Shown: one piece after another, positions 43,645 through 64,000 of the stretch
Numbering within the stretch: the first letter of the stretch is position 1
Layout of the letters: every line of letters begins with the position of its first letter
From: Candidatus Microgenomates bacterium
GTDB lineage: Bacteria > Patescibacteriota > Microgenomatia > JACQLA01
NCBI GenBank assembly: GCA_016204255.1
Contig: JACQLA010000005.1
Span: 132,339 to 196,338, forward strand
Reading direction: 5' to 3'
Length of the DNA: 64,000 bases
Made by a program: the position numbers and the translations under genes
The notes under the pieces: model-generated
What the model was told of the DNA's origin: nothing
Databases searched by the model: none
The model's input: only the letters and a program-made list of their open reading frames with translations

Positions 43645-43652
43645 CTGCCGCC

Positions 43653-44459: not shown

Positions 44460-44478
44460 ATTTTTTAAAACTTTTGAT

Positions 44479-44838
44479 ATGAGTATAAAAATTGAGAGAG
44501 CAAATCTTGCTCCCCAAATAGCTTATGATCTTGAGGCTCAAGCGATCACTATTCAGTGGGCTTTAACGGAAGGAGAGCTGGTTAAAATTGCACGTTTTCT
44601 GGAACGGGTTGAGTTAATTGAAGAGCTCGGACTCGAATGGTACCGATTGTATTATAAAAGTGATCAGGGTGATTCAGTGGCCACTGTTTGTAAAGAACAT
44701 GTAGATCAAGCAGTGTTAGATGAAATGAATACCGGAGACACGATGACTTTTATTCAAACCCGAGAGCGAAAGCCAGAAGTTTTTGACGGGCGAGAATTGT
44801 GCGCAGTAGCCGCAATCCTGTCGGGAGAACAGCTTTAA
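44479..44838 (+). CDS. hypothetical protein (119 aa)
   Basis: ORF track only. Confidence 0.4.
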   Translation: MSIKIERANLAPQIAYDLEAQAITIQWALTEGELVKIARFLERVELIEELGLEWYRLYYKSDQGDSVATVCKEHVDQAVLDEMNTGDTMTFIQTRERKPEVFDGRELCAVAAILSGEQL

Positions 44839-44944
44839 AGAAGAAAAAATAACCCGAAGCACCAATTAAATTAATGCCGACATCTTGAAGGCCGAGAAAA
44901 TGATATAATTATTGTGTTCTTCAAGAACAACAAAAGGAGGAAGT

Positions 44945-45562
44945 ATGCCTGCCCGAGAAAATTTAACGGTTATAAGCTCGCAAACGCCTAAAAATAATCC
45001 AGGCGGAGCTCAAAACCAGGTTAGCACATTGAAAGAAAATTCAGGTAAAGAGCAAGAAGAGGTTAGAACTCTCCTTTCCTGGAAGGCAAATTCCCGGCCC
45101 TTTAAAGAGCGGGGGAAGGAGTATTTTAAAACCCTGGGAGCGATTCTTTTTTTTGTCAGTGTGGTTTTGCTTTTTATCAAAGAGTGGCTTTTAATCGGGG
45201 CGATTTGGGCTTTTTTCTTTATTACGTATGTTTTAAGCCGGGTTCCGCCCGAAGATGTTGAGCACAAGATTACTACTCAAGGTATTACGACCGGAGGAAA
45301 AGTTTATCTTTGGCGGGAATTGTCAGACTTCTGGTTTACTCAAAATCATGGCCAGACAGTCTTAAACATTGATATCCTGCCGACAGGGAGGGTTAGATTT
45401 TTAGGACGGCTGCTGATTCTTTTGGGTGATCAATCCGAAACAAAAGTCAGAGAAATTTTGGCTAAATACTTGTCCTACCGCGAGATTCCGGAAAAAAACT
45501 GGATGGATAACGCAAGCGGTTGGCTGGCCAGAAAAATTCCGCTGGAAAAAAGTACAAACTAA
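44945..45562 (+). CDS. two-TM membrane protein (start moved to MPARENL)
   Basis: AGGAGG at 44934-44939, 5 nt before the ATG at 44945; TM pair LGAILFFVSVVLLFI / LLIGAIWAFFFITYVL. Confidence 0.5.
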   Translation: MPARENLTVISSQTPKNNPGGAQNQVSTLKENSGKEQEEVRTLLSWKANSRPFKERGKEYFKTLGAILFFVSVVLLFIKEWLLIGAIWAFFFITYVLSRVPPEDVEHKITTQGITTGGKVYLWRELSDFWFTQNHGQTVLNIDILPTGRVRFLGRLLILLGDQSETKVREILAKYLSYREIPEKNWMDNASGWLARKIPLEKSTN

Positions 45563-45586
45563 TTTCTGCCCGGATCACAACTGTTT

Positions 45587-45660
45587 GTGCCCGTAGCTTA
45601 ACTGGATAGAGCACAAGATTGCGGATCTTGAGGTTGGAGGTTCAAGTCCTCCCGGGCACG
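45587..45660 (+). tRNA. tRNA-Arg(GCG), CCA not encoded
   Basis: Acceptor GTGCCCG/CGGGCAC, anticodon stem CAAGA/TCTTG with loop TTGCGGA, T-arm GGAGG-TTCAAGT-CCTCC. Confidence 0.8.
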
Positions 45661-45662
45661 CA

Positions 45663-45723
45663 ACGTACAAAATCAAAGATTTTTACGTTGCTGAGACGTA
45701 AAATTACTTTGTAATTTGTACGT
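45663..45723 (+). repeat. 61-nt nested-palindrome leader (element A) between tRNA-Arg(GCG) and GIY-YIG copy 3
   Basis: ACGTACAAA|ATC-AAA-GAT|TTTTACGT-TGCTGAG-ACGTAAAA|TTAC-TTT-GTAA|TTTGTACGT. Same architecture as element D with different helix sequences. Confidence 0.7.
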
Positions 45724-45730
45724 CTCGCCC

Positions 45731-45982
45731 ATGTATTTTGTTTATGTGCTCAGAAGCGATAAAGATGCTAGCCTATACATAGGCTATACGGGTAATCTGA
45801 AAAAGCGTTTTATAGAGCACATCACCGGTTTGTCATTAGCCACGAGATATAAAAGACCTTACTCATTGATCTACTATGAAGCTTTTGTAGATAGAGTTGA
45901 CGCAAAAGACAGGGAAATTTATTTGAAAAGCGGCTGGGGCTTTAGAAGCATAAAAAAGATATTAAAGCGGTCTTTAAAGTAG
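45731..45982 (+). CDS. small GIY-YIG nuclease, copy 3 (83 aa; start moved from 45716 to the MYFVYVLRS ATG)
   Basis: MYFVYVLRS..LYIGYTGNL..RFIEH..LIYYEAF. The other copies all start directly at the M(Y/F)(Y/F)VY motif. The stop lies 2 nt before tRNA-Ser(CGA). Confidence 0.85.
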   Translation: MYFVYVLRSDKDASLYIGYTGNLKKRFIEHITGLSLATRYKRPYSLIYYEAFVDRVDAKDREIYLKSGWGFRSIKKILKRSLK

Positions 45983-45984
45983 CT

Positions 45985-46068
45985 GGAGGGTTGGCCGAGC
46001 GGTTTAAGGCGCTGGTTTCGAAAACCAGTGGGCGTAAGCCCTCACAGGTTCGAATCCTGTACCCTCCG
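45985..46068 (+). tRNA. tRNA-Ser(CGA)
   Basis: Acceptor GGAGGGT/ACCCTCC, anticodon loop TTCGAAA, long variable arm, T-arm ACAGG-TTCGAAT-CCTGT. Confidence 0.85.
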
Positions 46069-46098
46069 CCCGTATCGCTAACGAAACTTCGCTAAGTT

Positions 46099-46172
46099 GT
46101 GCCCGTAGCTCAGTGGATTAGAGCATCAGTTTCCGGAACTGGGGGTCGGAGGTTCGAATCCTCCCGGGCACG
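46099..46172 (+). tRNA. tRNA-Arg(CCG)
   Basis: Acceptor GTGCCCG/CGGGCAC (identical to the GCG isoacceptor), anticodon loop TTCCGGA, T-arm GGAGG-TTCGAAT-CCTCC. Confidence 0.85.
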
Positions 46173-46183
46173 CAGTTAATTTT

Positions 46184-46267
46184 GGAGGAGTCGGATAGCG
46201 GTTCATTCCACACGCTTGGAAAGCGTGCGAGCGCAAGCTCACGTGGGTTCGAATCCCACCTCCTCCG
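46184..46267 (+). tRNA. tRNA-Ser(GGA)
   Basis: Acceptor GGAGGAG/CTCCTCC, anticodon stem CACGC/GCGTG with loop TTGGAAA, variable arm GAGC-GCAA-GCTC, T-arm GTGGG-TTCGAAT-CCCAC. Confidence 0.85.
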
Positions 46268-46269
46268 CA

Positions 46270-51236: not shown

Positions 51237-51287
51237 CCACGTCTAGCGTGGCTGGAACGTAAAATTACTTTGTAATTTATACGTTCC
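51237..51287 (+). repeat. leader element B (hairpin CCACG-TCTAG-CGTGG, CTGGA linker, long hairpin GGAACGTAAAATTAC-TTT-GTAATTTATACGTTCC)
   Basis: The second hairpin differs from that of element A by a single G-to-A substitution (ACGTAAAATTACTTTGTAATTT[G/A]TACGT). Confidence 0.6.
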
Positions 51288-51337
51288 GCGGTAGCTCTCC
51301 GCCAGCTGGCGGAGGTAGAGTGGCGTCCTAAAGATAA

Positions 51338-51589
51338 ATGTATTTTGTGTACGCTATTTATAATAGAAAACACGGTAAAATTTATATTGGGCAAACGAAA
51401 GATTTAGAAACAAGATTGTATCTTCATGAAGAACATGTGTTTAACAATAGTTTTACCGCCATGTTTGATGGAGCTTGGGAATTAATTTATAAAGAGGCGG
51501 TGGAGGATCGCAGACGAGCTTTGTTAAGAGAAAAACAACTCAAAAGTTTTAGAGGAAGAGAATTTGTAAAAAGACATATTCCGCGGTAG
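51338..51589 (+). CDS. small GIY-YIG nuclease, copy 4 (83 aa); stop codon lies inside tRNA-Asn
   Basis: MYFVYAIYN..IYIGQT..RLYLH..LIYKEA; the last codons ccg cgg tag are tRNA-Asn positions 2-10. Confidence 0.75.
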   Translation: MYFVYAIYNRKHGKIYIGQTKDLETRLYLHEEHVFNNSFTAMFDGAWELIYKEAVEDRRRALLREKQLKSFRGREFVKRHIPR

Positions 51590-51654
51590 CTCAATGGTAG
51601 AGCAAATCCCTGTTAAGGATGAGGTTGCTGGTCCGAATCCAGCCCGCGGAGCCA
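51580..51654 (+). tRNA. tRNA-Asn(GTT), CCA encoded
   Basis: Acceptor TCCGCGG/CCGCGGA, D-arm GCTC-AATGGTA-GAGC, anticodon loop CTGTTAA, T-arm GCTGG-TCCGAAT-CCAGC, GCCA 3' end. Confidence 0.85.
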
Positions 51655-51689
51655 AGCGGCACTTAATATACCCAAAAAGAAACGTATTT

Positions 51690-52373
51690 ATGGCGCCTAC
51701 CCCTTTAGATACAAAACATTATAAGATTCAGAATCTGGAAAAAATTGCTGAATTGGTGGGATGTAAAGATAGACTAGAAAAATATATTGGAGATATAGAA
51801 AAAGTTTTTCCTACCATAGAAGAGATATTCGGTAAAAAATGGAATGACGATTACATTTATATTGAGCTGACTGATTCTACAGATTCTGGTGGATATGGTC
51901 GTCCAGGTGGTCGTCATGCTGTCTCTATAGGAATTTACGATAAAATTATTCAGGAAAAAGAGTATCCAGAAAATTTGTGGGGTTGTTTGCTTCACGAAAC
52001 TTTACATGCATTTATGAATCCAATTATTCATGGACCACCCGAAAGGTCTAAACAGGGAGGTCCAAATAAATTAGATGGATGTTTTGATAATGAACCTTTT
52101 ACTAGAGCTTTCCAAGGATTAGTCTATCTATCTTTGAAGAAAAAAGGGGAGATAACTACCGATTTATGTAATGAGTTTTTAAATAGATTAGAAAACGAAT
52201 TAAATCAAGAAGCACGGATTAGACTTTATAAAAGATATATCACTTTTTTTACGAAAAATGCTAGTTTTTTCTCAATATTTATAAGGAATTTGGATTTGTC
52301 TCCAAGCTCCATTATCCGAGATAATTTTTGGGAAGATTTAGAAAAACTTGAGAAAAAGGTAGAGGGTATTTAA
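51690..52373 (+). CDS. HExxH-motif protein (putative zinc metallopeptidase-like); start moved downstream of the tRNA
   Basis: LLHETLHAFMNP; the track start 51594 lies inside tRNA-Asn, and the first ATG after the tRNA is 51690. Confidence 0.45.
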   Translation: MAPTPLDTKHYKIQNLEKIAELVGCKDRLEKYIGDIEKVFPTIEEIFGKKWNDDYIYIELTDSTDSGGYGRPGGRHAVSIGIYDKIIQEKEYPENLWGCLLHETLHAFMNPIIHGPPERSKQGGPNKLDGCFDNEPFTRAFQGLVYLSLKKKGEITTDLCNEFLNRLENELNQEARIRLYKRYITFFTKNASFFSIFIRNLDLSPSSIIRDNFWEDLEKLEKKVEGI

Positions 52374-52382
52374 TAACCAATT

Positions 52383-54068
52383 TTAGGCAACAGCTGGAAC
52401 AAGAGAGGGTCTGACTTTCTCTATTTCTTCTCTTATCTGCTGAACTAGCCTAAAATCCTCAAAAGTTTTGATAGTACATGCTAATTTTGTGGCTATATTT
52501 GAATTATGATTCTCAGTGCTTATTATGCCAAGTTTAGCCTCGTTGAGGACTTTAAGTGCTGGACTGTATTCAACTTCCACTATTCTCTTATCTTGTAACC
52601 ATATCTTTTGGAAGAAGAAATGCAGATAGGCTCTTTTGTGGTCTATATCAGCTTTGTTGTAGGCTTTGACTATATTTTGAGTAAGGAATAGCACTTCATC
52701 AATAGCGGATATATCAATCGTTCGTACTTTGTCCTGTTCAGCAAGCTCTTTTTGAATATCAAGCAGTTCAGAATCTAACTTTGCATTTATACGTTTAAAT
52801 GCCTCACCGCCAACATTTCCTTCCATCAATTGAGCTTCTAGTTTCTCCCGTTTCATTTCTATACCATCACGTCTGTTGCAGAGAGCCTTTTTAGCTGTTT
52901 TTACTAGACCAACACTGTTGTCATATACTTGTTTAATGTTTGTTGTAACTGCATCAACAAATTCTTGGGTAAACTCAAGTTTGGCTACTTCTTCCTGTAC
53001 TTGTTTCTCTAAATTCTCAAGTTCAACATATTTAGAATCACATTGACCTCTTTTTCCAACCTGAGAACAGTGGTAGTAACCTATTCGACCACCCCTTGTT
53101 TTAAATTTAGGATGATAGTGCCATTCAGCTGTATACCTTTTTTTACAGTTCCGACAAAAGATAAGACCTCTTAAAAGAAAGTTATGTGTTCTTCTTCTCA
53201 ACCCGTAAGTTCCTTTTTCACTGAGTATCCGTTGGACTAGATCAAAAGTTTCCTTATCAATAAGGGAAGTGTGTTTACCCATACCTTCATGCCCGCCATG
53301 CTGCATCCAACCCCAATAAAATTTATTTTTTAACATTGTATGAGTAACTGAGAACTGGATTGGTCTTCCTTTTCTGCCCAAAACACCATTTTTATGTAAG
53401 TATTGTCTGATATCGTATATCGAATAATCCCTCGTGGCATACATTTGAAATGCTTTTGTTATAAATGGCGCTCTTGTAGGGTCAGGAACAACTATCTTTT
53501 TATCGTATACACCTGTTGGGTTCTTATTAACAACATTGTTATAGCCTAGTGGGGCGACTGAAGGATAATAACCTGCTTTGAATTTTTCTGCGGCTGTTTG
53601 TTTTACTTTGTAACTTGTTAATCGAGGCGGGATTGAGTGGATTACTGCTATTAATTCGTCAATGGCATCCCCAAAAGGATTATCATCAAAACTTACTATT
53701 CCTGTTAATGGAATTATTTTTGTATTGTATTTTCGAAGGGTTTGCTTGATGACTAAGTACTCTAATGTATTTCTTGCTACTCTCGAACTATCCTGGACGA
53801 TAACAAAGTCAATATCACCATTAGCACAACGAGTTAATATTTCCTGAAAAGCAAGACGGTTTGTTAGAGAAGTACCCGAAACACCGCCATCGACATAAAC
53901 GTCTTCTACAAGTTCACCATTTAGTTCTTGAACCTTTGTGATTATCTGTGTTTGTTGAACGTCTAAACTAAGTCCATTATCCCGCTGGTCTGGGGTACTT
54001 ACCCTCACGTAACCCAGGCATTTAGGTTTTCCATTATTTGATGTATTTTGTGTTTCTTGTAATTGCAT
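52383..54068 (-). CDS. large serine recombinase (resolvase domain, recombinase domain, zinc ribbon, coiled coil)
   Basis: N-terminal YVRVSTPDQ catalytic Ser context; CRNC...C..C Cys cluster; C-terminal coiled coil; 561 aa. Confidence 0.85.
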   Translation of the reverse strand: MQLQETQNTSNNGKPKCLGYVRVSTPDQRDNGLSLDVQQTQIITKVQELNGELVEDVYVDGGVSGTSLTNRLAFQEILTRCANGDIDFVIVQDSSRVARNTLEYLVIKQTLRKYNTKIIPLTGIVSFDDNPFGDAIDELIAVIHSIPPRLTSYKVKQTAAEKFKAGYYPSVAPLGYNNVVNKNPTGVYDKKIVVPDPTRAPFITKAFQMYATRDYSIYDIRQYLHKNGVLGRKGRPIQFSVTHTMLKNKFYWGWMQHGGHEGMGKHTSLIDKETFDLVQRILSEKGTYGLRRRTHNFLLRGLIFCRNCKKRYTAEWHYHPKFKTRGGRIGYYHCSQVGKRGQCDSKYVELENLEKQVQEEVAKLEFTQEFVDAVTTNIKQVYDNSVGLVKTAKKALCNRRDGIEMKREKLEAQLMEGNVGGEAFKRINAKLDSELLDIQKELAEQDKVRTIDISAIDEVLFLTQNIVKAYNKADIDHKRAYLHFFFQKIWLQDKRIVEVEYSPALKVLNEAKLGIISTENHNSNIATKLACTIKTFEDFRLVQQIREEIEKVRPSLVPAVA

Positions 54069-54146
54069 AGTTTAATGATTTATTAGTGATCTATATTTAT
54101 ATTTTCAATGGTTTTAGGTTCAATGGCACCGACCAACCTCTGTTGA

Positions 54147-54425
54147 TTATGCTTCTTGCATCTGGTTGAGCAATAGCCCACACCAAGCCTTAGCCAACTT
54201 TTCTACTTCTTTATTAGCTTGACCGGGGGTAGTATCTTTCCTTTGAACCAACTTTCTACCTAGCCCATTTCCTTTTATGGAATTATTAGTTTTAACTGAT
54301 ATCTCTCTTTGTGATATAAGGGCGGATGTGGCCTTACTGCCATTTCTATTAACTATTTGCTTAGAGTCTCGAACTTCGAGGCTAGGAACTCTTAAAATAG
54401 TCTTATTTTGTAAATTTGTAGTCAT
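54147..54425 (-). CDS. hypothetical protein (92 aa)
   Basis: ORF track; co-oriented with its neighbours. Confidence 0.35.
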   Translation of the reverse strand: MTTNLQNKTILRVPSLEVRDSKQIVNRNGSKATSALISQREISVKTNNSIKGNGLGRKLVQRKDTTPGQANKEVEKLAKAWCGLLLNQMQEA

Positions 54426-54464
54426 GTGTTTTTAGTTAAAAATCAATGCAATCTTTTATTTTTT

Positions 54465-55187
54465 TTAGCTAGTAATTAAATGTTTTCGGTATTCATCCCA
54501 ATTGCCATCAAAGAAAACATTTACAACATCTTTTTCTTGCTGATCGTCTTCAATTTCAACCTTTTCTCTGACGTTTTCATCAATCCATCTCATGTCTTCC
54601 GTGGATAAGTTTTGAAAATTATTTTCGTGTCGAATTTTAAGATAATCAGCTTCACTTCTTACTGATTGACTAATAAGAACTACTTTCTTAGAATCATTAA
54701 AAGGAACCCTATACTTACCCTTAGAAGAACCTAGAGCTTTAGATGTGTCTTTTAAGGCTAAAACAGTATTATTTAAAGGGTTTATTTCCGTCTTTTCAGG
54801 GGAAAAACAGATATTTTGAAGGATAAAATCCAAGGTTGGGGTATTTTTTTCGCTCTTAGCAAATTCATTCGCTTTGCCACCAAATGCAGTTACATATCTT
54901 TTAGGTGATTTAATTCTAAATATTTCCCGTTTTTTGTTAACTAGCTCAATAAATCCTTTATTTAACAGTCCGTTGTGCCAATCCTTGATAGTTTCTTCTT
55001 CTTTATTGAAGTATTGTTTTGTTTCTTCGGTAAATGCTACAAATAATCCAAAATTCTCATGACTGAGATCAAAGTCCATTGAGTCAAGATAAAACTCAAA
55101 CAATAGAAATTCTTGAGGTGCTAAAACACCATTTTTAAGAAGTAACCACCTGTTTCTATGACTTGCTCTGTGTCCGCTTATCTTCAT
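54465..55187 (-). CDS. hypothetical protein (240 aa)
   Basis: ORF track; no motif recognised. Confidence 0.45.
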   Translation of the reverse strand: MKISGHRASHRNRWLLLKNGVLAPQEFLLFEFYLDSMDFDLSHENFGLFVAFTEETKQYFNKEEETIKDWHNGLLNKGFIELVNKKREIFRIKSPKRYVTAFGGKANEFAKSEKNTPTLDFILQNICFSPEKTEINPLNNTVLALKDTSKALGSSKGKYRVPFNDSKKVVLISQSVRSEADYLKIRHENNFQNLSTEDMRWIDENVREKVEIEDDQQEKDVVNVFFDGNWDEYRKHLITS

Positions 55188-55254
55188 AACCCAATTTTAT
55201 CTGTCTTTGGGTTTGAATCTGCGGTCAGTTGTGAGGGGTAAATAAGTGCGACAA

Positions 55255-56253
55255 TTAGCGGTCAATGAGTTTGTGAAGATTGCTCCAATTATCAAGTTTG
55301 TCAGGAACAGCATTTTTTATTCTTTTATTCATTCTGTTTACTATTTTCCGAATACTTTCCAACTCTAGGTATTTGATTCTCTTAGCTTCTTTTCTATCTA
55401 TACTTTTTTCTGCTTTATCTTTTACCGCTTCCTCTTTTTTTACATTGGAATAAATTTTATCACCACGTTGCCTGCTGGTTTTATGGTTGATATAGGAGCG
55501 ATAGATAAAATAATCTCTTTTAATGTCATCTGTTTTAGATTCGTTATCCCTAGTAGAACTTTTTATCTCTGTTAACCCTATTGTTATGTTTTTTCGGTTT
55601 CTTTCAATTAATTCTTCAAGGTCTTTGAATGTAGTACCAGGGTAAAGTGTTATTGATAGTGTTACTCTTTTTCCTGATTTCATACGGATATTTATACTTT
55701 GTTCATCGAATACTGCATTCCAGTTTTCTAATGTTTTTAAAATACGTTCTGGGTATAATAAAATTAAGAGCTGTCTTAATATAATGATCCAACTAGCCAT
55801 ATTTCTTGTATCCCTCAATTTTAGGAAGGACATCATAATATGGATAGGAGTATTTACCAGCTCTTGACATACTGATTGACGAGAAATATGGGAAATTTTT
55901 CTTTTTGCATTTGAACGAGCTAACTTTTTTAGTATTGACTCTTCTGTTTTTTTAATCATAATTGCTATCTTGGGGTCTATTATTTTTCCTGATCTATATT
56001 CTGTTACGACCTCGTGTATTTTTTGTTGCCACTCTTGAAACTCTGGCTCACTTTTAAATCCATCTATAGGTATGTATATGCTTAAACGACTACCCCTTAG
56101 TAAATATTGGAAGTCTTTATTTAGAAGAATGTATATAACATAGTTAAGTATGTTTTTTGAGTGATTATTGAGTTCATATTCGCTTGCCTTCTCAAGCAGG
56201 GTGTTTATGTATTCATCAATACGAGGGGTAATAACATTGTCTAAATAACCCAT
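55255..56253 (-). CDS. hypothetical protein (332 aa), basic C-terminal tail
   Basis: ORF track; no motif recognised. Confidence 0.45.
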   Translation of the reverse strand: MGYLDNVITPRIDEYINTLLEKASEYELNNHSKNILNYVIYILLNKDFQYLLRGSRLSIYIPIDGFKSEPEFQEWQQKIHEVVTEYRSGKIIDPKIAIMIKKTEESILKKLARSNAKRKISHISRQSVCQELVNTPIHIMMSFLKLRDTRNMASWIIILRQLLILLYPERILKTLENWNAVFDEQSINIRMKSGKRVTLSITLYPGTTFKDLEELIERNRKNITIGLTEIKSSTRDNESKTDDIKRDYFIYRSYINHKTSRQRGDKIYSNVKKEEAVKDKAEKSIDRKEAKRIKYLELESIRKIVNRMNKRIKNAVPDKLDNWSNLHKLIDR

Positions 56254-56345
56254 GTTTTATAATTTTCTTAATTTTCACCCTCTATTCTACTAAGAAATGA
56301 GCTAAAGTTACCAGTTTTACCAGAAAGAGCGAGGGGAAAGATGAG

Positions 56346-57032
56346 TTAGTTGCTGATTTTCCATAAATCACTGCAATTATAGATACCGCAATCAATCGTA
56401 AGGCTTTGAGTGGAAACTGTTGTCCCTATGCCTATTGTTCCTGTTCCTTGTATTAACACTCCATTATTGCTCGGATTACTGAAATTTAATAATCCCCATG
56501 TTGGAAATGGCCTATCGGGAACAGTAATAGTTTGTTTTTTGTGTTTTTCTGTTCCTTGCCAGAAAACATAAACATCTGTTTCAAAAGTAGTTCCGCTCGG
56601 CGGAATATTACTTGTTCTAAATGTAATTCCATGGCAATTACCAGCACCGTAGATGTCTCCGGTACTTAAATGAGCGGTTGCTCTTGCAGTTGCATCTGAA
56701 TCAATTACTGCATTATTCCACGAGCAGTTGTTCGGTGGGGTGGTGGGTATAGTGAGGGGACTATCACCAGTAGTTCGCAGAATGAATCTGTCTTCATAAA
56801 ACTCAGTACCCCATTGATTAGGTAAATCAAACTCAACTTTCTTTTCCAATTCAGCAATTCTTATTTCGTGGTTATCTATTTTCTGAATTAGAGAGTTTAT
56901 AGAATCTTGAATTGGCTTTATTGCATTAGTGAACCAAGGGGGAAGAAGAGAGTTTTCTTTTGCATATATTGGGGAAGCTACAATTATAAGCAACACCAAA
57001 ATAACAAATGACAGACTAATTATCTTCTTCAT
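56346..57032 (-). CDS. secreted hypothetical protein (228 aa)
   Basis: Signal peptide MKKIISLSFVILVLLIIVASPIYA, short coiled coil, beta-rich C-terminus with 4 Cys. Confidence 0.5.
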   Translation of the reverse strand: MKKIISLSFVILVLLIIVASPIYAKENSLLPPWFTNAIKPIQDSINSLIQKIDNHEIRIAELEKKVEFDLPNQWGTEFYEDRFILRTTGDSPLTIPTTPPNNCSWNNAVIDSDATARATAHLSTGDIYGAGNCHGITFRTSNIPPSGTTFETDVYVFWQGTEKHKKQTITVPDRPFPTWGLLNFSNPSNNGVLIQGTGTIGIGTTVSTQSLTIDCGIYNCSDLWKISN

Positions 57033-57150
57033 AATTTTCTCTATAAATATATCTTAGTATTTCTAAGAGTTAATATCAACCCATTTTCAAGGCGAGTTGC
57101 TTAGAAATATTTAGTTGAGTATAGGCTTCTGGCATATCACAATTTTATAT

Positions 57151-57372
57151 ATGCCGAAAACAACAGATGAGACACTAAAAAGCCTGGGTAAGAAAGTACA
57201 AAAGCTAAGGAAGGAACAGAACTTAACCCAAGAGGAATTAGCCCATCAATTAAGTATCTCAAGGGTTTATATGGGGTATATTGAACAAGGGCGAGAGAGT
57301 CCCTCGTTAAAGCTCCTGATGAAAATATCACGAAAGTTTAATGTAAAAGTTGAAGACTTGTTTCACAGATAA
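57151..57372 (+). CDS. XRE-family helix-turn-helix transcriptional regulator (73 aa)
   Basis: LRKEQNLTQEELAHQLSISRVYMGYIEQGRESPSLKLLMKISRKFNV is an HTH_3 signature; start moved to the ATG at 57151. Confidence 0.75.
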   Translation: MPKTTDETLKSLGKKVQKLRKEQNLTQEELAHQLSISRVYMGYIEQGRESPSLKLLMKISRKFNVKVEDLFHR

Positions 57373-57406
57373 ATTTTATTTACCAATCTTGAATATTTAG
57401 TAGATA

Positions 57407-58435
57407 TGTAGCGAAATAACTGTCAGCATTTCCCCTTACCCCATCTGTTAGGTTGGAACTCTGGTAAAGTTATATATACATGCAATAGTTTGGATAGGTA
57501 AGTCCAGATTTTGCTGATTTGTAATCCTGCCTCTGAACTTCTGGTTTAAAATCCCAAAGTGTTTTAGGTAAGAGAGTGAATGTTCTACTCTTACCCTAAT
57601 GGAGGAAATAGTCCTGTTGGCAGCTTTTTCCTCTTGTGAAAGTTCTCCTCCAGGTGGTTTCTTTTTAGGAATAACCATTTTAAGATGGGAGTTGTTCCCA
57701 TCAGCTCCCTGGTAGGCCGAATCACCCATACCCACTGAATCCGGTGGAGCTCTTAAGAAAGCAGGATCATAATCAAAGATCTTTTTGTCATGAATGGTTC
57801 CGGGCAGAGTCGGAGAGACAGACAGAATCCTGTTAGTTTGGGGTGAAACCAGAATTTGATTTTTAATACAATGTGCTTTCTTTTTACCTGAGTAATGTTC
57901 CTGTTGAATACGATTATCTTTTGGCCTTTGAATTAATCTCTCTGTACAGTCAATAATGAACTCAGCAAGTTCCGGATATTCCTCCAGCCATAAATCCCAC
58001 CTTGAGATTCTTTTTCTAACCTTAAGTGTTAACTCATACCCTAATGTAGAAAACAGCACTGAAGCCAGGAATTTAACCCACAGCTGAATGTTCCTTTTAT
58101 CCAGTCCATAGATGACCTGGGCAAACCTGAAAGTGGGATAGGTTTTGTAGTAAAAGAGGATGAAGAAGAGCTTTTGATAGTCATCTGCTAACTTGGCTTT
58201 TCTTCCTCCGCCAATCTCCCGGAGTCTTTTCCTTGAATATGCTTTTTTAATTTCAGCTTGTCTTAAAACCCCGGTAAATTTAGGCAACAGTTTCTGAAAC
58301 TGACTGAAGGTAATGCCAATTACATATTGAAAAAGTTCTCTGTGTTTGAGAAGATATTCCTGGTTTAACATTTAAGGCAGGTCTAACTGGAAAAATTAAG
58401 CCTGCCTTAATATTAACAGGTATTATTTCGCTACA
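57407..58435 (-). mobile_element. insertion sequence with perfect 13-bp terminal inverted repeats (TGTAGCGAAATAA) and a DDE_Tnp_4-type transposase
   Basis: 57407-57419 tgtagcgaaataa equals the reverse complement of 58423-58435 ttatttcgctaca, bracketing the single transposase ORF. Confidence 0.75.
57448..58371 (-). CDS. DDE transposase (DDE_Tnp_4 / Harbinger-PIF-like, IS5-related)
   Basis: IIDCTERLIQRP, GMGDSAYQG and IRVRVEHSLSYLK give a D-D-E triad context; N-terminal HTH region. Confidence 0.75.
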   Translation of the reverse strand: MLNQEYLLKHRELFQYVIGITFSQFQKLLPKFTGVLRQAEIKKAYSRKRLREIGGGRKAKLADDYQKLFFILFYYKTYPTFRFAQVIYGLDKRNIQLWVKFLASVLFSTLGYELTLKVRKRISRWDLWLEEYPELAEFIIDCTERLIQRPKDNRIQQEHYSGKKKAHCIKNQILVSPQTNRILSVSPTLPGTIHDKKIFDYDPAFLRAPPDSVGMGDSAYQGADGNNSHLKMVIPKKKPPGGELSQEEKAANRTISSIRVRVEHSLSYLKHFGILNQKFRGRITNQQNLDLPIQTIACIYNFTRVPT

Positions 58436-58442
58436 AGTTTAG

Positions 58443-59333
58443 TTATTCGTTAGCTTGGAGACGTTTAGTTATTAATTCGTAGAATTCTTTTTCTTTCTCA
58501 ATAGCAATATATCTTCTTTTATATTTTTGAGTTACTAAAGGTAGAGTACCGCTTCCTGCGAATGGGTCAATAATTATATCTTTTTCTTTTGTTGCTCCAA
58601 TGACAATCCTTTTAATTATTTCTATTGGTTTTTGAGTAGGATGTTTACCTTGTTTTCTCTCAGCTGTAGGAGTACCTAGAACATCCCACATATTGCGCAT
58701 CTGCAGATTTATTGATTTTAAATTGTTATTACCACAGAATGGGCAATATTTATAATTTGAGTCTAGAGTCTTTTTACATTTATCACATTTTTTTATTTGA
58801 TTAAGTTTTTTTATTGCAGCATAGTTAAATGTCCAATTTTTGGCTTCTTTTTGTGAATTGTTTACTGCCCAGATAATAAATTCAGTGCTATCACATAACA
58901 TTCTATGGGTGATATTAGGAAAGGCATTTCTTTTATACCAAGTTATGAAGTTAAGTATTTTTTTACCCTCCTTTTCTAAAATTGAAGCGATTTTAAAGAT
59001 GTTATGATGACTACCGAAAATTATAATATTGCCATTTGGTTTAATAATTCTAAATATTTCTTTCAACCACACTTGAGTAAAATCCTCATACGTTTTGTTT
59101 GAAAAACTATCCCATTTCTCATCTACTTTATTAAAATTTTTTTCACCTGTCCAATAACCGTTAGACTTTAACCATCCAATTTTTTTCTTTCCGTCATATC
59201 CTGAAATATTATAAGGTGGGTCTGTTATGCAATGGTCAACAGAATGAGCTTCAATTTTAGGTAGAACTAACAAAGAATCATTCAGTATGAGGTTGTTTTC
59301 TAGCCCTGAGTTATAATCTGTGTTTATTTTCAT
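58443..59333 (-). CDS. beta-class N6/N4 DNA methyltransferase (DPPY type) with inserted zinc ribbon
   Basis: Motif IV CITDPPYN near the N-terminus, motif I IIDPFAGSGT near the C-terminus, insert CDKCKK..CPFCG. Confidence 0.8.
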   Translation of the reverse strand: MKINTDYNSGLENNLILNDSLLVLPKIEAHSVDHCITDPPYNISGYDGKKKIGWLKSNGYWTGEKNFNKVDEKWDSFSNKTYEDFTQVWLKEIFRIIKPNGNIIIFGSHHNIFKIASILEKEGKKILNFITWYKRNAFPNITHRMLCDSTEFIIWAVNNSQKEAKNWTFNYAAIKKLNQIKKCDKCKKTLDSNYKYCPFCGNNNLKSINLQMRNMWDVLGTPTAERKQGKHPTQKPIEIIKRIVIGATKEKDIIIDPFAGSGTLPLVTQKYKRRYIAIEKEKEFYELITKRLQANE

Positions 59334-59411
59334 AATAATTCTCTTTATAAGTCATCACTATGCTAGAATATCTACATACAAATTTTATCAGATTCTTGGT
59401 TGGATTGAACT

Positions 59412-60383
59412 ATGGAAGATGAATTGAAAACTCTTATTAACAGATTAGTAAATATCCAAGATGAAATATTGAGCAAGTACGGGTTAGTGGATATTTACTC
59501 TAGTAGCAAAATATTCGAGATTATTATTTCAGATTGCTTAAATCATATTTTGTTACCCAGTCATGCAGGCTCAAGAGATGGAAAGGATGATTCAGGAGAA
59601 TATGAATATAAACACTATAAAGAATCAAGCTCCAATCATAGTTGGACGTTCAATGATTTTAGCGATACTACTATTGAAAAATTAAATCATTGTTATGTTG
59701 TTATTTTTGCCCACATTGAAGACCAGAAAGAATTGCCAGAGTTTGATTGGTTTTATCAAGTTCCGGGTAAAGTAATTAGTGGTTATTTGAAACAAGCGAC
59801 TATAAAAATTAAAAATACAAGAAAAATGATTAACGTCAGCCCTTCGCAAATAGAGAGTGTTATGGGAATAAATAAAACTTTTACCAAAAACCTTCCTTGT
59901 AAGCATTTTTACACCTCTTATTTAAAAGAAATATTTTCGGTAACAAGAAGAATTGAAAAAATCGTAGGCACAAAAGATATTTTAACAAGCAACAAGCTCT
60001 GGGAAATATTAGTTTCCTTACAGACAGGACATAAAGTACTTTCTGAACAAAAAGCTCATGATGCTGTTGATGAAAAAGGAGAATTCTATGAATATAAAGT
60101 AGCACGAAATTATTCATGGAATTTTGAAGATATTTCCCCTAAGGTCTTATCGAAATTTTTACAAGAAAAAGCTGTTGTTTTGGCAATAATAGATAAGGCA
60201 AGGATGAAAATATTAAAAATCTTTTTTGCTGACCCAATTAAAGTGGTAAAAAGATTAGAAGAAAAACTTGAAGAAAAAAGAATTCGCTTCAGTAAAGAAG
60301 GCAAGGTTGTAAGAAGATTGCAGGTTTCATTAAGCGCTGGAGACCTTGCGAAAGTAGAAGCCAGTCAAGTATTTCCTCGATAA
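59412..60383 (+). CDS. putative restriction endonuclease built from two tandem homologous PD-(D/E)xK-like halves
   Basis: Sandwiched between the two MTases. Internal repeat: FEII..RDGKDDSGEYEYKHY..HSWTFNDFS versus WEIL..HDAVDEKGEFYEYKVA..YSWNFEDIS (E...D...ExK pattern in each half). Confidence 0.45.
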   Translation: MEDELKTLINRLVNIQDEILSKYGLVDIYSSSKIFEIIISDCLNHILLPSHAGSRDGKDDSGEYEYKHYKESSSNHSWTFNDFSDTTIEKLNHCYVVIFAHIEDQKELPEFDWFYQVPGKVISGYLKQATIKIKNTRKMINVSPSQIESVMGINKTFTKNLPCKHFYTSYLKEIFSVTRRIEKIVGTKDILTSNKLWEILVSLQTGHKVLSEQKAHDAVDEKGEFYEYKVARNYSWNFEDISPKVLSKFLQEKAVVLAIIDKARMKILKIFFADPIKVVKRLEEKLEEKRIRFSKEGKVVRRLQVSLSAGDLAKVEASQVFPR

Positions 60384-60387
60384 TTGA

Positions 60388-61092
60388 CTAAAATAGAGTG
60401 GTTGGGGTTGTTCCTACTCGTTCTATTGCTTTTTTACAGTATTCCTTGTCAATTTCAAATCCAATATAATTCCTTTTTAAGATTTTACATGCTGCAGCGG
60501 TAGTTCCGCTTCCCATAAATGGGTCAACTACTAAGTCATCTTTGTTTGTGGTTAACTCTATTAGTTTTTCAATTAATTCGAGCGGTTTTTGTGTAGGGTG
60601 TATTCTGTTTTTTCCCTTAGGAGCCTGAAATTTTAGAATATTGTGTTGATAGTTACTATTCCAAGTTGATCCTGGCTTTTTACCTATAATTGCCACTTCC
60701 CATGCATTTAAAAATCTTGACTTAGCATTTAATGGTAAAGGGTCAGGTTTTTGCCAAGCCAAAGCATCAACCGCTATGAATCCATCTTTTTCCAAAGCAT
60801 TCCAATAGATTCCTAAGTCCTTTTTAGCACAAAACGAAATAAACCACCCTTTTACTTTTGGTATACTTATTCCTATCCATTCCTCATTAAACTTATCCCA
60901 CTCTCCAAATTCGAAGTCTAATTTAGCAGTTGTTCCCAGTCGTTTACCCTTACAATTTAATTTTTTACTGATTCCATATGGAGGGTCAGCAATTAAAAGG
61001 TCAATTGAATTGTCGGGGAGTTCTTTTAGACCTTCCAAACAATCAATACATTGAATTGTGTTTAACCAGCTCTGGATAATATTATTTGTCAT
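60388..61092 (-). CDS. beta-class N6/N4 DNA methyltransferase (DPPY type), second copy
   Basis: LIADPPYG (motif IV) and VVDPFMGSGT (motif I). Confidence 0.8.
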   Translation of the reverse strand: MTNNIIQSWLNTIQCIDCLEGLKELPDNSIDLLIADPPYGISKKLNCKGKRLGTTAKLDFEFGEWDKFNEEWIGISIPKVKGWFISFCAKKDLGIYWNALEKDGFIAVDALAWQKPDPLPLNAKSRFLNAWEVAIIGKKPGSTWNSNYQHNILKFQAPKGKNRIHPTQKPLELIEKLIELTTNKDDLVVDPFMGSGTTAAACKILKRNYIGFEIDKEYCKKAIERVGTTPTTLF

Positions 61093-61096
61093 TGTT

Positions 61097-61708
61097 TTAA
61101 ATCGAACTATTTCTAATCAATCCTTTAAATATACCTCTAATTTCTAACGAATGGGGATAAATATTTTCTAACCGTTTATTTCTTGGCTCTAAGAATATTG
61201 TACCGTTTTTGCTTCTAAATATTTTAAGTGTTGCACCACCTTCAGTAACTGCAACTACAGTATCTCCGTTATCGGCAGTTTGTTGACTTTTAATTACTAC
61301 AATATCTCCATTCCAAATACCATCTTCAATCATACTATCACCCTTAACTTTTAAAGCATAGAAATCACCTTGTCTTGAGACTAAATTCTTGGGTACTTTT
61401 ATCGGTTCTGGATTCTCAATAGGCTCTATTGGTGTTCCAGCAGCTATAATTCCCAAAAGAGGAATTTCTACTGAATCGGGTGTTTGCTCAAACAGAGATA
61501 CTCCTCGTGGTTGATTTTCCTCTTTTTTCAGATAACCTTTGGTTTCCAGGGCTTTAACGTGTTGATGTACTGTTGAGATAGCAAGCTCAAATTTCTTACC
61601 TATCTCCTCCAAAGAGGGGGCATACCCCTTATCAGTAGAAAAAGATGTAATGAAATCAAGTATGTGCTTCTGCTTAGGGGTCAATGTCCTCTTGAGTTTT
61701 CCATTCAT
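61097..61708 (-). CDS. lexA: LexA-type repressor (LexA DNA-binding domain plus S24 peptidase)
   Basis: LTPKQKHILDFI..GYAPSLEEIG...VHQHVKALETKGYL; Ala-Gly cleavage context IIAAGTPIEP; catalytic GDSM and ..TLKIF Lys context. Confidence 0.8.
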   Translation of the reverse strand: MNGKLKRTLTPKQKHILDFITSFSTDKGYAPSLEEIGKKFELAISTVHQHVKALETKGYLKKEENQPRGVSLFEQTPDSVEIPLLGIIAAGTPIEPIENPEPIKVPKNLVSRQGDFYALKVKGDSMIEDGIWNGDIVVIKSQQTADNGDTVVAVTEGGATLKIFRSKNGTIFLEPRNKRLENIYPHSLEIRGIFKGLIRNSSI

Positions 61709-61733
61709 ATAGTATATATTAATAATACCGAAA

Positions 61734-61752
61734 CTGTTACGAAAGTCAACAG
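61734..61752. promoter_or_regulatory. inverted repeat CTGTT-N9-AACAG in the lexA / large-ORF divergent promoter region (candidate operator)
   Basis: Overlaps a minus-strand TTGACT (61744-61749) with 16-nt spacer and TATTAT promoter for lexA. It lies 6 nt upstream of a plus-strand TTGACT (61759-61764) with 18-nt spacer and TTTAAT promoter. Confidence 0.3.
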
Positions 61753-61803
61753 GGAAAATTGACTTTTATAACAACGGGAGAATTTAATTTTATATTAATA
61801 ATT

Positions 61804-64000
61804 ATGAGTTATAGCAATCCAGACTACAAAAATGTTACAGCCTCTGTTCGAACTCCAAAAGTAGTTACTTTTATTAGCACGAGCGATAAACACTGGAAAC
61901 ATACAGTAATGAGAATTATTGAGTGGTACAGCAAAATGTGGGGCGGTGCATACAATTTAATAATCCCAACAGATGGAACAACTATAGATAAAGATTTTTG
62001 GCAAATCTTAGAAAGATACAGCCCCGATTATCTAGTTTCCTATTACTACACTTTCGCTGGGCTATCTTTGGCTGATCCCAAAGCATATGAGCGAGGGATA
62101 AAAAATAGATACTCGCAGTTAGAAAAAGCATTTCCCGATATGACTGAGGATTCAATTAAAGAGCATGTTAATCAAGAGGCGGAAATGAGTGTTTATCATA
62201 AATTTAATTTTACAGACCAGCTTCAACAAGAATTAAAACAAAGGCTATCTCCCTTCTATTTTGAAGACCATATTGTTAGAGAAAAAGTAACTTGGAATAG
62301 CAAAGTAACTTTCCCTTTAACACCAATTGAAAAGATAATTCCTCATAGCGATATAAACAATATTTTTTCTGTTAATCTTCCAAAGAAATATCAAAATTCT
62401 GATTTGAAACTTATTGTTTACTCGGTATCAGGTTTTGCAACGAATGAATATCTTAAAGAACTTGAAAAAATAGGGGTAACAATAGACTACGTGCCAAATA
62501 GTTATCCTATTAAAAGTATTTTAGAAGATGTAGTTAAAGGAGGGGTTGATTTAAGTTCACAAAAACTTGAAAGAGAGCTATCAGAGACTCTTAATAATAA
62601 AGCTAAAAAGGAGTGGATGCCTGAAACCGACTATTTAAGACAGTCTCCATTTTCAGTATCAATGCTTAAATTAGGAAGATATCACAAGGTAACGGAGCAT
62701 AGAGATTGGGAGGAGCCTGTTGTATTGGTCGTGGGAGATACGATTCAAGACTTCTGCTATTACTATTCGCTTTCTAAAGCTCATGGTGATTTTTATTGGA
62801 TGCCTAAATCTTTACTAGATAAATTCGATAGGGCTTTATCGAAAAAGATAAAAGCAAATAAATATCTTACTGAACTTGAGGCTGTTCCCTATGCGATAGT
62901 AAATGTTCTTTATAGCAAGATTGGTTATGGGTATGACGATAAAAAGATACTTCTTACGAGCCGATCTCTTTTGAATCAAGAACTAGACCGACTAAGGGAT
63001 ATACTTATAAAAGCAATTAATAGCGGAAATTTTTCTAAAAGTATCGAAGTTGCAAATGGACAAGATTTTACTAAGTGCATGTTAAATGTAATAGAACAGG
63101 ATAACTATACTAACCAGCAGACACAAACATTTGTAGATGGGCAAAGTATTGGAAGGATTGAAACACCAAAACCTAAAAACTTCAAATACATTGATCCAAG
63201 AGAACATCGCTGGATTACGGAAATAAGCATAGATGGTTATAAACTACCTCAATTACATTTTTTAGGCCATCAAGCCATACCAATTAGTAATGCTCATGAC
63301 GTAAGGATTTCGAGTGAAGGAATTTCTTACTTTTGCCCCAATATTAGCTATTTCGGTGGAGATATTGATGTTGTATTGATGAAACCAAAACTAAATTTAA
63401 TTGAGCCAATTGAGATTTTCAGGGAATACTACAAAGAAGCAGGTTATAAACAGGTTTCAATTTCTGACAAAGGTCAGCTATCACAAAGAGCAATTGCAAA
63501 ATTTGGATCGCTTGATCGAGTTGGGGTCTTCTTAATCCCTGAGAAAAACCGCAACCTCATAGAAAAGTTTATAAAAGCACCGCCAACAGCAGATGAATCT
63601 ACTGGTGAGGAAATAGTTTTTGTTAACCAGAGAAATTATCTCAATTTCAAATCAATTGCTATCACTTTAGGGGATGAGAAAGAGGCAATATCTTTAATAG
63701 ATGAGTTCATTTTAAAGGAGATATTTCACAAGGGTTTTATTTTTCACTGCGAGGCATGTCTTAAATCAGATTGGTATGGTGTTGAATCGATTACTTCAAA
63801 GTTTAAATGTAGCAGGTGCGGCCATGAACAAACTTATAGCCATAAACACTGGAAAAGTCCACAGGAACCCTCTTGGTATTACAAGTTAGACGAAGTAATC
63901 AGAGAAGGGTTCGTACAAAATATGACTGTGCCTCTACTAACTCTTTATTTTCTAAAAAGAAAGTCACCAGAAAGTTTTCTATATGTACCTGAATTAGGTT
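61804..64000 (+). CDS. large hypothetical protein, >732 aa, truncated by the window end (absent from the ORF track)
   Basis: Hand translation from the ATG at 61804 (MSYSNPDYKNVTASVRTPKVVTFISTSDKHW...) is open to 64000. Late Cys4 zinc-ribbon-like CEAC...CSRC. No other motif recognised. Confidence 0.65.
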   Translation, partial: MSYSNPDYKNVTASVRTPKVVTFISTSDKHWKHTVMRIIEWYSKMWGGAYNLIIPTDGTTIDKDFWQILERYSPDYLVSYYYTFAGLSLADPKAYERGIKNRYSQLEKAFPDMTEDSIKEHVNQEAEMSVYHKFNFTDQLQQELKQRLSPFYFEDHIVREKVTWNSKVTFPLTPIEKIIPHSDINNIFSVNLPKKYQNSDLKLIVYSVSGFATNEYLKELEKIGVTIDYVPNSYPIKSILEDVVKGGVDLSSQKLERELSETLNNKAKKEWMPETDYLRQSPFSVSMLKLGRYHKVTEHRDWEEPVVLVVGDTIQDFCYYYSLSKAHGDFYWMPKSLLDKFDRALSKKIKANKYLTELEAVPYAIVNVLYSKIGYGYDDKKILLTSRSLLNQELDRLRDILIKAINSGNFSKSIEVANGQDFTKCMLNVIEQDNYTNQQTQTFVDGQSIGRIETPKPKNFKYIDPREHRWITEISIDGYKLPQLHFLGHQAIPISNAHDVRISSEGISYFCPNISYFGGDIDVVLMKPKLNLIEPIEIFREYYKEAGYKQVSISDKGQLSQRAIAKFGSLDRVGVFLIPEKNRNLIEKFIKAPPTADESTGEEIVFVNQRNYLNFKSIAITLGDEKEAISLIDEFILKEIFHKGFIFHCEACLKSDWYGVESITSKFKCSRCGHEQTYSHKHWKSPQEPSWYYKLDEVIREGFVQNMTVPLLTLYFLKRKSPESFLYVPELG

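Follow-up and report, generated by a model that had tools for sequence, protein, structure and literature searches.

What kind of DNA begins exactly at the 3' end of a tRNA-Asn gene in a Microgenomates genome, and what placed it there? The question is raised by a 64,000-nt stretch of Candidatus Microgenomates bacterium (GCA_016204255.1, contig JACQLA010000005.1; hereafter the window), in which an earlier note, made from the letters alone, had described an AT-rich island starting at this tRNA gene. Bacteria of the candidate phyla radiation (CPR) have genomes of about 1 Mb and few known mobile elements. We conclude, with a probability of roughly 75%, that a mobile island of about 15 kb, neither phage nor conjugative element, is integrated here and occupies tRNA-Asn by means of a large serine recombinase.

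Coordinates refer to the window (1-64,000). Positions above 64000 are taken from L098, a second assembly of the same organism that was reached by an exact look-up of a methyltransferase protein, and assume that both assemblies are collinear; L098 was 99.93% identical to window positions 57009-64000 over 6,992 bp and added 7,092 bp beyond the window. Open reading frames (ORFs) were scanned with Pfam, PHROGs, PADLOC and NCBIfam, tRNA genes were predicted by ARAGORN and RNA families by Rfam. Homologs of the island ORFs were searched in about 180 fetched loci (given L numbers). The metagenome scan with the recombinase yielded 80 loci, of which 30 members (at least 50% identical) could be classified by their downstream sequence.

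Composition and junctions of the island

The tRNA-Asn(GTT) gene was located by ARAGORN at 51580-51654 on the plus strand. The overall guanine-plus-cytosine (GC) content was 0.431 for positions 1-51654 versus 0.343 for 51655-64000, and in 1-kb windows it was 0.431 (standard deviation 0.031, n=51) before the tRNA and 0.346 (standard deviation 0.021, n=16) after it (Mann-Whitney p = 1.3e-9). The tetranucleotide correlation to the host profile was 0.90-0.97 upstream, 0.77-0.81 at 52-68 kb and 0.92 past 68 kb, and in the extension the GC content was 0.356 in 66630-67979 and 0.404 beyond. These non-uniform profiles placed the composition break exactly at the tRNA end, with a shift back toward host values near 68 kb. 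The island proposed in the earlier note was thus confirmed, as both the break and a conserved element terminus (see below) start at the tRNA 3' end.

No second copy of the tRNA 3' end was found within the window, even allowing three mismatches, and the right end lay beyond it as had been anticipated: a direct repeat including the last 6 nt of the tRNA was detected 14,977 bp downstream, in the extension. The att repeat that had been suggested, CCAGCCCGCGGAGCCA, proved not to be the repeat, because only GAGCCA of the tRNA was common to both copies, together with 21 bp downstream of the tRNA. The junction features were as follows.

51580-51654, plus strand: tRNA-Asn(GTT); its 3' half provides the bacterial arm of attL, the left attachment site
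51649-51675, plus strand: left 27-bp repeat, GAGCCA-AGCG-GCACTTAATATACCCAA, consisting of the crossover region GAGC and the element arm P'
52376-52535: sequence X (see below) fused to the recombinase 3' end and encoding its 'class B' tail; an attP-like junction from which, by alignment of the X copies, a 9-bp core (GAGCCAGTT) is deleted
66626-66652 of the extension: right copy of the 27-bp repeat, identical to the left copy at 24 of 27 positions, 14,977 bp apart

Two exact copies of the 17-mer GCACTTAATATACCCAA, and no more, were present in the extended sequence of 71 kb (at 51659 and 66636), both placed after GAGCCA-N4. The 17-mer is the reverse complement of the terminal codons (LGILSA) of the recombinase family, and the 23 bp following the window tRNA (AGCGGCACTTAATATACCCAAAA) likewise correspond in reverse complement to the family's terminal recombinase codons. 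The terminus AG-N-GCACTTAATATACCCAA stood directly after the tRNA 3' end in the window, in the Daviesbacteria locus L009, at a tRNA-Gln gene in L006 and in most metagenome loci. As it follows the tRNA in L009 and L006 too, the tRNA 3' end is exactly where a conserved element terminus starts. Empty tRNA-Asn sites (L016, L017 and L021, all distant relatives belonging to other genera) ended in ...GGGGAGC followed by A, with neither an encoded CCA nor the 17-mer, which places the crossover in or next to GAGC and indicates that the 'CA' of the window's CCA came from the element.

The distal copy of the 17-mer was preceded by a sequence of about 100 bp, designated X, which is homologous to the 'class B' C-terminal tail of the window recombinase (...TENHNSNIATKLACTIKTFEDFRLVQQIREEIEKV...). 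Copies of X were found at 52376-52535, 66525-66629 and 67877-67979, and related elements in L095, L013, L105, L108 and L134 likewise had X at their distal ends. Every copy ended in ...GATTCTCGAGC; at internal junctions its GAGC was followed by a P'-type 17-mer, at outer junctions by unrelated sequence. In the third copy, TAGGTTTT comes after GAGC, giving an outer junction X''-GAGC followed by TAGG near 67,979. X as a known RNA gene was rejected, with no Rfam match at X at E <= 0.1.

Serine-integrase att sites measure about 40-50 bp, are imperfectly dyad-symmetric about a crossover of 2 bp and share no long identity between attP and attB. In X-GAGC-17-mer, inverted motifs of 14-15 nt (TGGTTATATTAAAGT and ACTTAATATACCCA) were located 11 nt either side of the centre of GAGC, an arrangement resembling the dyad symmetry expected for a serine-integrase attP. 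The junctions and the tRNA had only GAGC(CA) in common, and since only GAGCCA of the tRNA is repeated, the core is short, which fits a serine recombinase.

The recombinase family and its tRNA target

The enzyme at the left junction was the following.

52383-54068, minus strand: large serine recombinase of 561 aa with catalytic Ser24 in YVRVSTPDQ (PF00239, PF07508, PF13408)

By sequence comparison, it has the catalytic (PF00239, 1.2e-19), Recombinase (PF07508, 2.8e-14) and zinc beta-ribbon (PF13408, 1.6e-09) domains of large serine recombinases in an intact ORF, and it matched the integrase family phrog_95 at 4.6e-84. Residues R22, S24, R96 and R99 were invariant in an alignment of 20 family sequences (A1). 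The search returned 156 strong homologs, nearly all from Microgenomates, most of them 520-534 aa long and ending in ...AKLGILSANWLP(R). This C-terminal tail is encoded antisense over the tRNA 3' end, where TGG complements CCA.

Fusion to a tRNA gene was observed in 25 of the 30 classified loci (24 tRNA-Asn, 1 tRNA-Gln). The final count comprised 14 intact tRNA-Asn genes, 10 tRNA-Asn genes that are apparently intron-split, the single tRNA-Gln and 5 non-tRNA loci. Script scoring before revision had given 13 intact tRNA-Asn, 8 with a T-arm and TTAC for TTAACAG, 1 tRNA-Gln and 8 non-tRNA; three of the last, with the T-loop TCGGA instead of TCGAA, were reassigned by eye, L119 to the intact class and L129 and L132 to the TTAC group. 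The TTAC group was read as intron-split on the basis of the group I intron in L009. In L006 and L007, the recombinase stop codon overlaps tRNA-Gln by 13 bp, and this tRNA-Gln-associated recombinase was 73% identical to that of the window.

In the mechanism that these junctions suggest, the large serine recombinase would drive the island and target the extreme 3' end of tRNA-Asn. The attP of the circular form would read X-GAGC-CAGTTG-GCACTTAATATACCCAA-recombinase. Recombination at GAGC with the tRNA end (...GGAGC) would put the P' arm and the recombinase gene beside the tRNA, and integration would supply the 'CA' of the encoded CCA and leave X at the distal end. The predicted circle junction is X'...GATTCTCGAGC joined to CAAGCGGCACTT (in longer form, ...GTTACGATTCTCGAGC joined to CAAGCGGCACTTAATATACCCAAAAAG); the predicted deletion junction is tRNA...GGAGC joined to CAGTTGGCACTTAATATACCCAATATTTT, so that the chromosome after loss of the 15-kb unit would read ...CCAGCCCGCGGAGC joined to CAGTTGGCACTTAATATACCCAATATTTTATGG; and the fully empty site would read ...CGCGGAGC joined to TAGGTTTTTTAAATC. 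The exact crossover dinucleotide would fall in or next to GAGC. The island is presumably still able to excise, and its transfer would probably occur by uptake of the excised circle.

Several observations concern the tRNA genes and recombinases around this family. The tRNA-Asn of L009 (11749-12030, minus strand) carries a group I intron in its anticodon loop (RF00028, 81.9 bits), and for this reason it is missed by ARAGORN; the same split, TTAC for TTAACAG, was seen in about a third of the related loci (L102, L103, L105, L106, L122, L129, L130, L132 and L136). In L012, a different large serine recombinase of 530 aa (5330-6922, C-terminus ...LGFEPR...) lies antisense over the whole of tRNA-Glu (5354-5430), so tRNA targeting by CPR serine recombinases is not confined to one family. 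Resolvase-domain-only ORFs of 113-220 aa were located just upstream of the large recombinase in L003 (9234-9680), L095 (15926-16267) and L113 (8974-9636), and no such short ORF was present in the window.

Genes of the GIY-YIG type accompany several of the tRNA genes. The first 13 nt of tRNA-Asn (TCCGCGGTAGCTC) are present twice, at 51285 and 51580, with an 83-aa GIY-YIG gene (51338-51589) between the two copies. Similarly, in L006 (11560-11978), repeats of 15 nt from the 5' end of tRNA-Gln flank a gene of this type. Three GIY-YIG genes occur in 17 kb of the window (the one above, within 51285-51592, and those at 43653-43913 and 45731-45982), one of which ends 2 bp before tRNA-Ser(cga). Their arrangement suggests a mobile cassette that enters tRNA genes in their 5' part, which becomes duplicated. 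Six clustered tRNA genes (four Ser, two Arg; 43489-46268) lie upstream of dnaG-rpoD, with partial synteny in L009, L015, L018 and L028.

The array, its exchangeable modules and its cargo slot

Starting at window position 51655, the island ends at about 66,629 in the extension, and the whole tandem array, of 16.3 kb, closes near 67,979. Beyond the recombinase, it contained the following features.

51690-52373, plus strand: unit 1, orf227 (227 aa, HExxH motif), a one-gene insert that separates the outer P' arm from the recombinase tail
54147-54425, minus strand: orf92 (92 aa), just upstream of the recombinase; homologs beside the recombinase in 13 loci, 35-85% identical
54465-55187, minus strand: orf240, a backbone gene with a predicted N-terminal winged-helix fold; 40 homologs; AlphaFold2 (AF2) model with a mean predicted local distance difference test score (pLDDT) of 79
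55255-56253, minus strand: orf332, a backbone gene; homologs 24-31% identical in L111, L132 and L003
56346-57032, minus strand: orf228, first gene of the recombinase-terminal operon; homologs 48-76% identical at the same position in L009, L099, L095, L115 and L132
57115-57372, plus strand: XRE-family helix-turn-helix regulator (PF01381, 1.5e-13), at the same position in L009, L095, L099, L111 and L136
57401-58437, minus strand: IS5-like insertion sequence (IS) with 13-bp inverted repeats TGTAGCGAAATAA and a TTAG-type target duplication
57448-58371, minus strand: DDE_Tnp_4 transposase of the IS (PF13359, 7e-29)
58443-59333, minus strand: type II methyltransferase 1 (N6/N4, beta class; PF01555, 2.8e-44; PADLOC MTase_II, 8.9e-69)
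59412-60383, plus strand: candidate type II endonuclease, with weak matches (PADLOC REase_II, 1e-05; a faint precomputed PF09225 Endonuc-PvuII match)
60388-61092, minus strand: type II methyltransferase 2 (PF01555, 1.8e-40)
61097-61708, minus strand: LexA, with S24 peptidase and LexA DNA-binding domains (TIGR00498, PF01726, PF00717)
61709-61803: intergenic divergent promoter region, the left edge of the cargo slot; homology stops at 61749 (L095) or 61766 (L009)
61804-64275, plus strand: P0001 (823 aa, stop outside the window), the cargo gene
to 66,629: distal part of the main unit, with orf76 (76 aa), a 229-aa ORF and a 2-hydroxyacid dehydrogenase
66,630-67,979: unit B, with a 210-aa and a 174-aa ORF and no recombinase; the ORFs lie within 66659-67838 (L098 3255-4434)

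All of the gene types that had been listed for the island before (serine recombinase, small ORFs, XRE regulator, IS, restriction-modification (R-M) genes, LexA and a large ORF) were present. The order of the array is tRNA-Asn-GAGC-P', unit 1, the dead X junction, the main unit, X'-GAGC-P', unit B and X''-GAGC-host, and within the main unit the order is recombinase, orf92, orf240, orf332, orf228, XRE, IS, R-M, LexA, P0001 and the distal part. The backbone common to relatives comprises the recombinase, the small ORFs, XRE, R-M, LexA, the 76-aa ORF and the 2-hydroxyacid dehydrogenase. Tandem arrangements were also found in L105, L108, L113 and L117, and in L108 the reading frame of a second recombinase runs on into X of the first element. 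From this pattern, an X-type recombinase tail marks an older unit behind a newer one, and the canonical short tail marks the unit directly at the tRNA. The internal X-GAGC-P' junctions imply either that units came in on the tRNA side of an element already resident or that homologous exchange took place.

Exchange of modules between elements was evident from a 3.3-kb LexA-R-M module, which was 96.8% identical at the DNA level to L095-L097, where the recombinase was about 69% identical and the cargo and flanks were different. The IS is precisely missing from this otherwise 96.8%-identical module in L095 and is a recent insertion. Methyltransferase 2 was found with unchanged protein sequence in elements of several backgrounds, on at least 23 contigs. 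The R-M genes consist of two clear methyltransferases around an endonuclease candidate with weak matches only.

A variable slot is bounded by LexA and the 76-aa ORF. Homology among the window, L009 and L095 covered LexA and 41-58 bp of intergenic sequence, then ended, and restarted 23 bp past the P0001 stop, at the 76-aa ORF. The slot contents were as follows.

Window: P0001
L095-L097: a cyclic-oligonucleotide-based anti-phage signalling system (CBASS), with CD-NTase, Cap15 and two further ORFs
L009-L011: a prokaryotic Argonaute (pAgo; Piwi), a DpnII/MboI-like nuclease and a NucS-like protein

Look-up of P0001 returned only Logan contigs of 2.7-3.4 kb. One of these, L001, matched 61722-64000 exactly and added 1,161 bp; both L001 and L002 break at 61722, within the shared region, which fits co-existing slot variants in one community.

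P0001, called a giant unknown ORF in the earlier note, is 823 aa long, and its stop lies 275 bp past the window end. It is identical to an 823-aa hypothetical protein of Candidatus Microgenomates bacterium, had no match in the GTDB scan and showed no sequence-family match in Pfam, PADLOC or NCBIfam. Its predicted domains are a Rossmann-like N-terminal region resembling the CRISPR-associated Rossmann fold (CARF), a Zn ribbon (C649, C652, C669 and C672) and a C-terminal PD-(D/E)xK motif; in the alignment columns D754...E761-x-K763 and the four-cysteine ribbon were invariant. The AF2 model (pLDDT 83.4, predicted template modelling score 0.79) had its closest folds by Foldseek in VC1899 (1.3e-4), Can2 (5.5e-4 to 1e-2) and Card1 (1.5e-2), with probabilities of 0.96-1.0 but E values of only 1e-4 to 1e-2 and template modelling scores of about 0.3. 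VC1899, Can2 and Card1 are nucleases that combine CARF and PD-(D/E)xK domains; compared with them, P0001 is double the size and has an extra Zn ribbon. The model suggests that P0001 may be a ligand-gated nuclease effector. For effectors of the Can2/Card1 kind, activation by a cyclic oligonucleotide from a linked cyclase is expected; no cyclase gene was found beside P0001 in the window. The P0001 homologs of L012 and L013 come after a 256-aa ORF that weakly matched HEPN; they occupy the distal end of different elements of the serine-recombinase kind, and in one case the recombinase overlaps tRNA-Glu in antisense.

LexA scored 170.9 bits against TIGR00498, versus the equivalog cutoff of 110.95 (NCBIfam), and LexA homologs were located within related recombinase elements in 12 loci; its start differs in public gene calls, being called as 195 aa in L098. 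The lexA promoter, TTGACT-17-ATTATT, contains in its spacer a near-palindrome, CGTAACAGTTTCG, that was conserved upstream of lexA in five elements (the window at 61709-61760, L009, L095, L111 and L123). Judged by this conservation, CGTAACAGTTTCG is a plausible candidate for an autoregulatory LexA operator of this lineage, and it differs from the LexA box GAAC-N4-GTTC. SOS/LexA control of the cargo gene received no support, because the palindrome lies in the spacer of the LexA promoter and the cargo-side promoter was not conserved between variants. In the window and L009, back-to-back TTGACT boxes form an inverted repeat, AAAGTCAA-N9-TTGACTTT.

The position of unit 1 is unoccupied in L009: there, TTAGGCAA comes immediately after CCCAAAA, and the 23-mer abuts X. 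No match to orf227 was found in Pfam, PHROGs, PADLOC or NCBIfam, and no homolog in the fetched loci; likewise, the 210-aa, 174-aa and 229-aa ORFs had no family match and no homolog in these loci. The orf92 product had no Pfam family match and may be an accessory or directionality factor. The orf240 model gave weak Foldseek matches to winged helices of the MarR/ArsR/Rep type (E 0.03-0.3), and orf332 had no family or PDB match; a replication role for orf240 and orf332 was not adopted, with no significant PDB sequence matches for either and only the weak winged-helix matches for the orf240 model. The orf228 product is predicted from its hydrophobic N-terminus to be secreted or membrane-anchored. 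The XRE gene is divergent from the operon running from orf228 to the recombinase, an arrangement that resembles a lysogeny or repressor switch.

Nature of the element and its significance

The island combines an adjacent integrase, a direct repeat of part of the tRNA, deviant composition and absence from some relatives, as is looked for in tRNA islands. The host flank dnaG-rpoD-(pyk, GIY-YIG)-tRNA-Asn was orthologous in L009, L015, L016, L017, L021, L102, L105 and L136; some of these sites are empty, some hold a distant (25% identical) serine recombinase and many have the same backbone, which was present at rpoD-tRNA-Asn in L009, L102, L105, L111 and L136. The earlier note had named conserved synteny of these genes in all related genomes as an outcome that would speak against the island. 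This holds in part: a related element does stand at the orthologous rpoD-tRNA-Asn locus in many Microgenomates, but the site is empty in L016, L017 and L021. We read this as a locus occupied repeatedly, or since ancient times, by site-specific insertion, and not as ordinary chromosome. When the window was compared with L009, identity was about 86% for LexA, 65-68% for the recombinase, 48-54% for host DnaG and about 70% for RpoD.

Several findings weigh against a mobile island. The element may be decaying, as the X junction next to the recombinase lacks its 9-bp core and an IS lies inside the element. At the distal site, X-GAGC is followed by a P'-type 17-mer and not by host sequence, so that tandem accretion via an attL-like target is required; to our knowledge, pairing of attP with attL-type sites is not a feature of canonical serine integrases. 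Neither an empty site nor a circular junction was found within the species, and a pyruvate-kinase look-up gave only island-bearing long contigs of it. The housekeeping-type dehydrogenase and bona fide LexA in the backbone, as well as the widespread occupancy of the same locus, would fit long vertical residence too. Finally, the right end is known from the L098 assembly, not from the window's own contig.

A broader reading would make the tRNA-Asn locus of Microgenomates a serine-recombinase cassette platform with integron-like logic, serving as the main point of anti-phage exchange and carrying the cell's LexA. A single recombinase would take up, stack and swap units, each flanked by an X arm and a P' arm and as small as one gene or as large as a 15-kb element, and newcomers would enter on the tRNA side via the attL-like site; the defence exchanged would comprise CBASS, pAgo, CARF-like nucleases and R-M. 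We put this forward tentatively, the odds being clearly against it.

It is unlikely that the region is a fixed, immobile relic, that is, an ancient element turned chromosomal hot-spot whose content changes by homologous recombination and IS activity. Such a relic would agree with the presence of the island on all long contigs of the species, with the core deletion at the recombinase's own X junction and the inserted IS, and with module boundaries that resemble breakpoints of homologous exchange. It would also agree with the related backbone at rpoD-tRNA-Asn across Microgenomates, where recombinase identity (61-65%) is close to that of RpoD (60-70%). However, the recombinase ORF and its catalytic residues are intact and clearly conserved, the outer repeats retain the exact 17-mer, the 73%-identical recombinase is located at tRNA-Gln instead, empty sites exist, and the 3.3-kb module is 96.8% identical between otherwise diverged elements with different flanks.

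Descent from a prophage, or a satellite of the phage-inducible chromosomal island (PICI) type that uses a helper phage for packaging and spread, is very unlikely. The size of about 15 kb is satellite-like, an integrase stands beside XRE in a divergent, switch-like layout together with an S24-peptidase repressor-type protein (LexA), and a GP3_package (small-terminase-like) protein is among those of a distantly related element in L012, where a P0001 homolog is found as well. On the other hand, no capsid, portal, terminase, tail, lysis or primase family was matched among the ORFs of the array in Pfam and PHROGs. The recombinase had no relative among 2.9 million IMG/VR contigs, whether searched with the single sequence or the family profile, and on both scans a viral origin was rejected; LexA scored above the equivalog cutoff for true LexA. 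The island is therefore not a prophage, given the lack of structural genes and of IMG/VR relatives of its recombinase. An integrative and conjugative element (ICE) or mobilizable element moved by a type IV secretion system (T4SS) can practically be dismissed: tRNA integration and tandem accretion with recombinase-less units resemble arrays of ICEs and cis-mobilizable elements (CIMEs), but Pfam scans of all ORFs of the 16.3-kb array gave no relaxase, coupling protein, VirB4, T4SS or oriT-associated family. The view that the element is neither phage nor conjugative, implied when the earlier note listed no capsid, terminase or conjugation genes, thus held.

For the integrated mobile island that we favour, the best analogy among known systems appears to be the staphylococcal cassette chromosome (SCC). 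SCCmec elements carry large serine recombinases (CcrAB or CcrC), form composite arrays and bear accessory cargo including R-M. As generally known for SCC, the island would share a large serine recombinase as driver with no transfer or phage machinery of its own, the 3' end of one conserved gene as target with short repeats at each junction, and tandem composites that include recombinase-less units and accessory cargo such as R-M. It differs in that its target is a tRNA 3' end, whereas that of SCC is rlmH/orfX, and in that its single recombinase gene abuts the junction (in most relatives overlapping the tRNA in antisense) in a CPR host. Phages of the phiC31/Bxb1/A118 type resemble it in the three-domain recombinase, the predicted attP-like dyad around a short core and the lack of long attL/attR identity, and differ from it in that the island has no phage genes, a tRNA target and a P'-type arm at the distal junction.

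Genes for tRNA are the textbook target of tyrosine integrases, serine integrases generally being located elsewhere. The tRNA islands of such integrases, including ICE/CIME arrays, share with the present island an intact tRNA 3' target, an adjacent integrase, tandem accretion and deviant composition; here, in contrast, the recombinase is of the serine class and only about 6 nt of the tRNA are repeated. As in the hot-spots of P4-like satellites and P2-like prophages, which are generally known to interchange unrelated anti-phage systems, a mobile backbone has a fixed slot, but the island is by gene content neither phage nor satellite and its slot lies between LexA and the 76-aa ORF. Among mycobacterial prophages and PICIs, for example, tRNA sites are taken by tyrosine integrases, and serine integrases insert at other places (PMC10654092).

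In the literature searched, no description of tRNA-targeting serine recombinases in CPR bacteria was found. The present analysis points to a whole family of large serine recombinases that is specialised on the last bases of tRNA-Asn, with its gene antisense over the tRNA. Their short, predicted att sites would open these recombinases to trial as genome-engineering tools with a tRNA landing site. The slot also points to the 823-aa CARF-like nuclease as a candidate defence effector, and the island as a whole would give CPR bacteria a defined vehicle and a defined slot for the exchange of defence systems.

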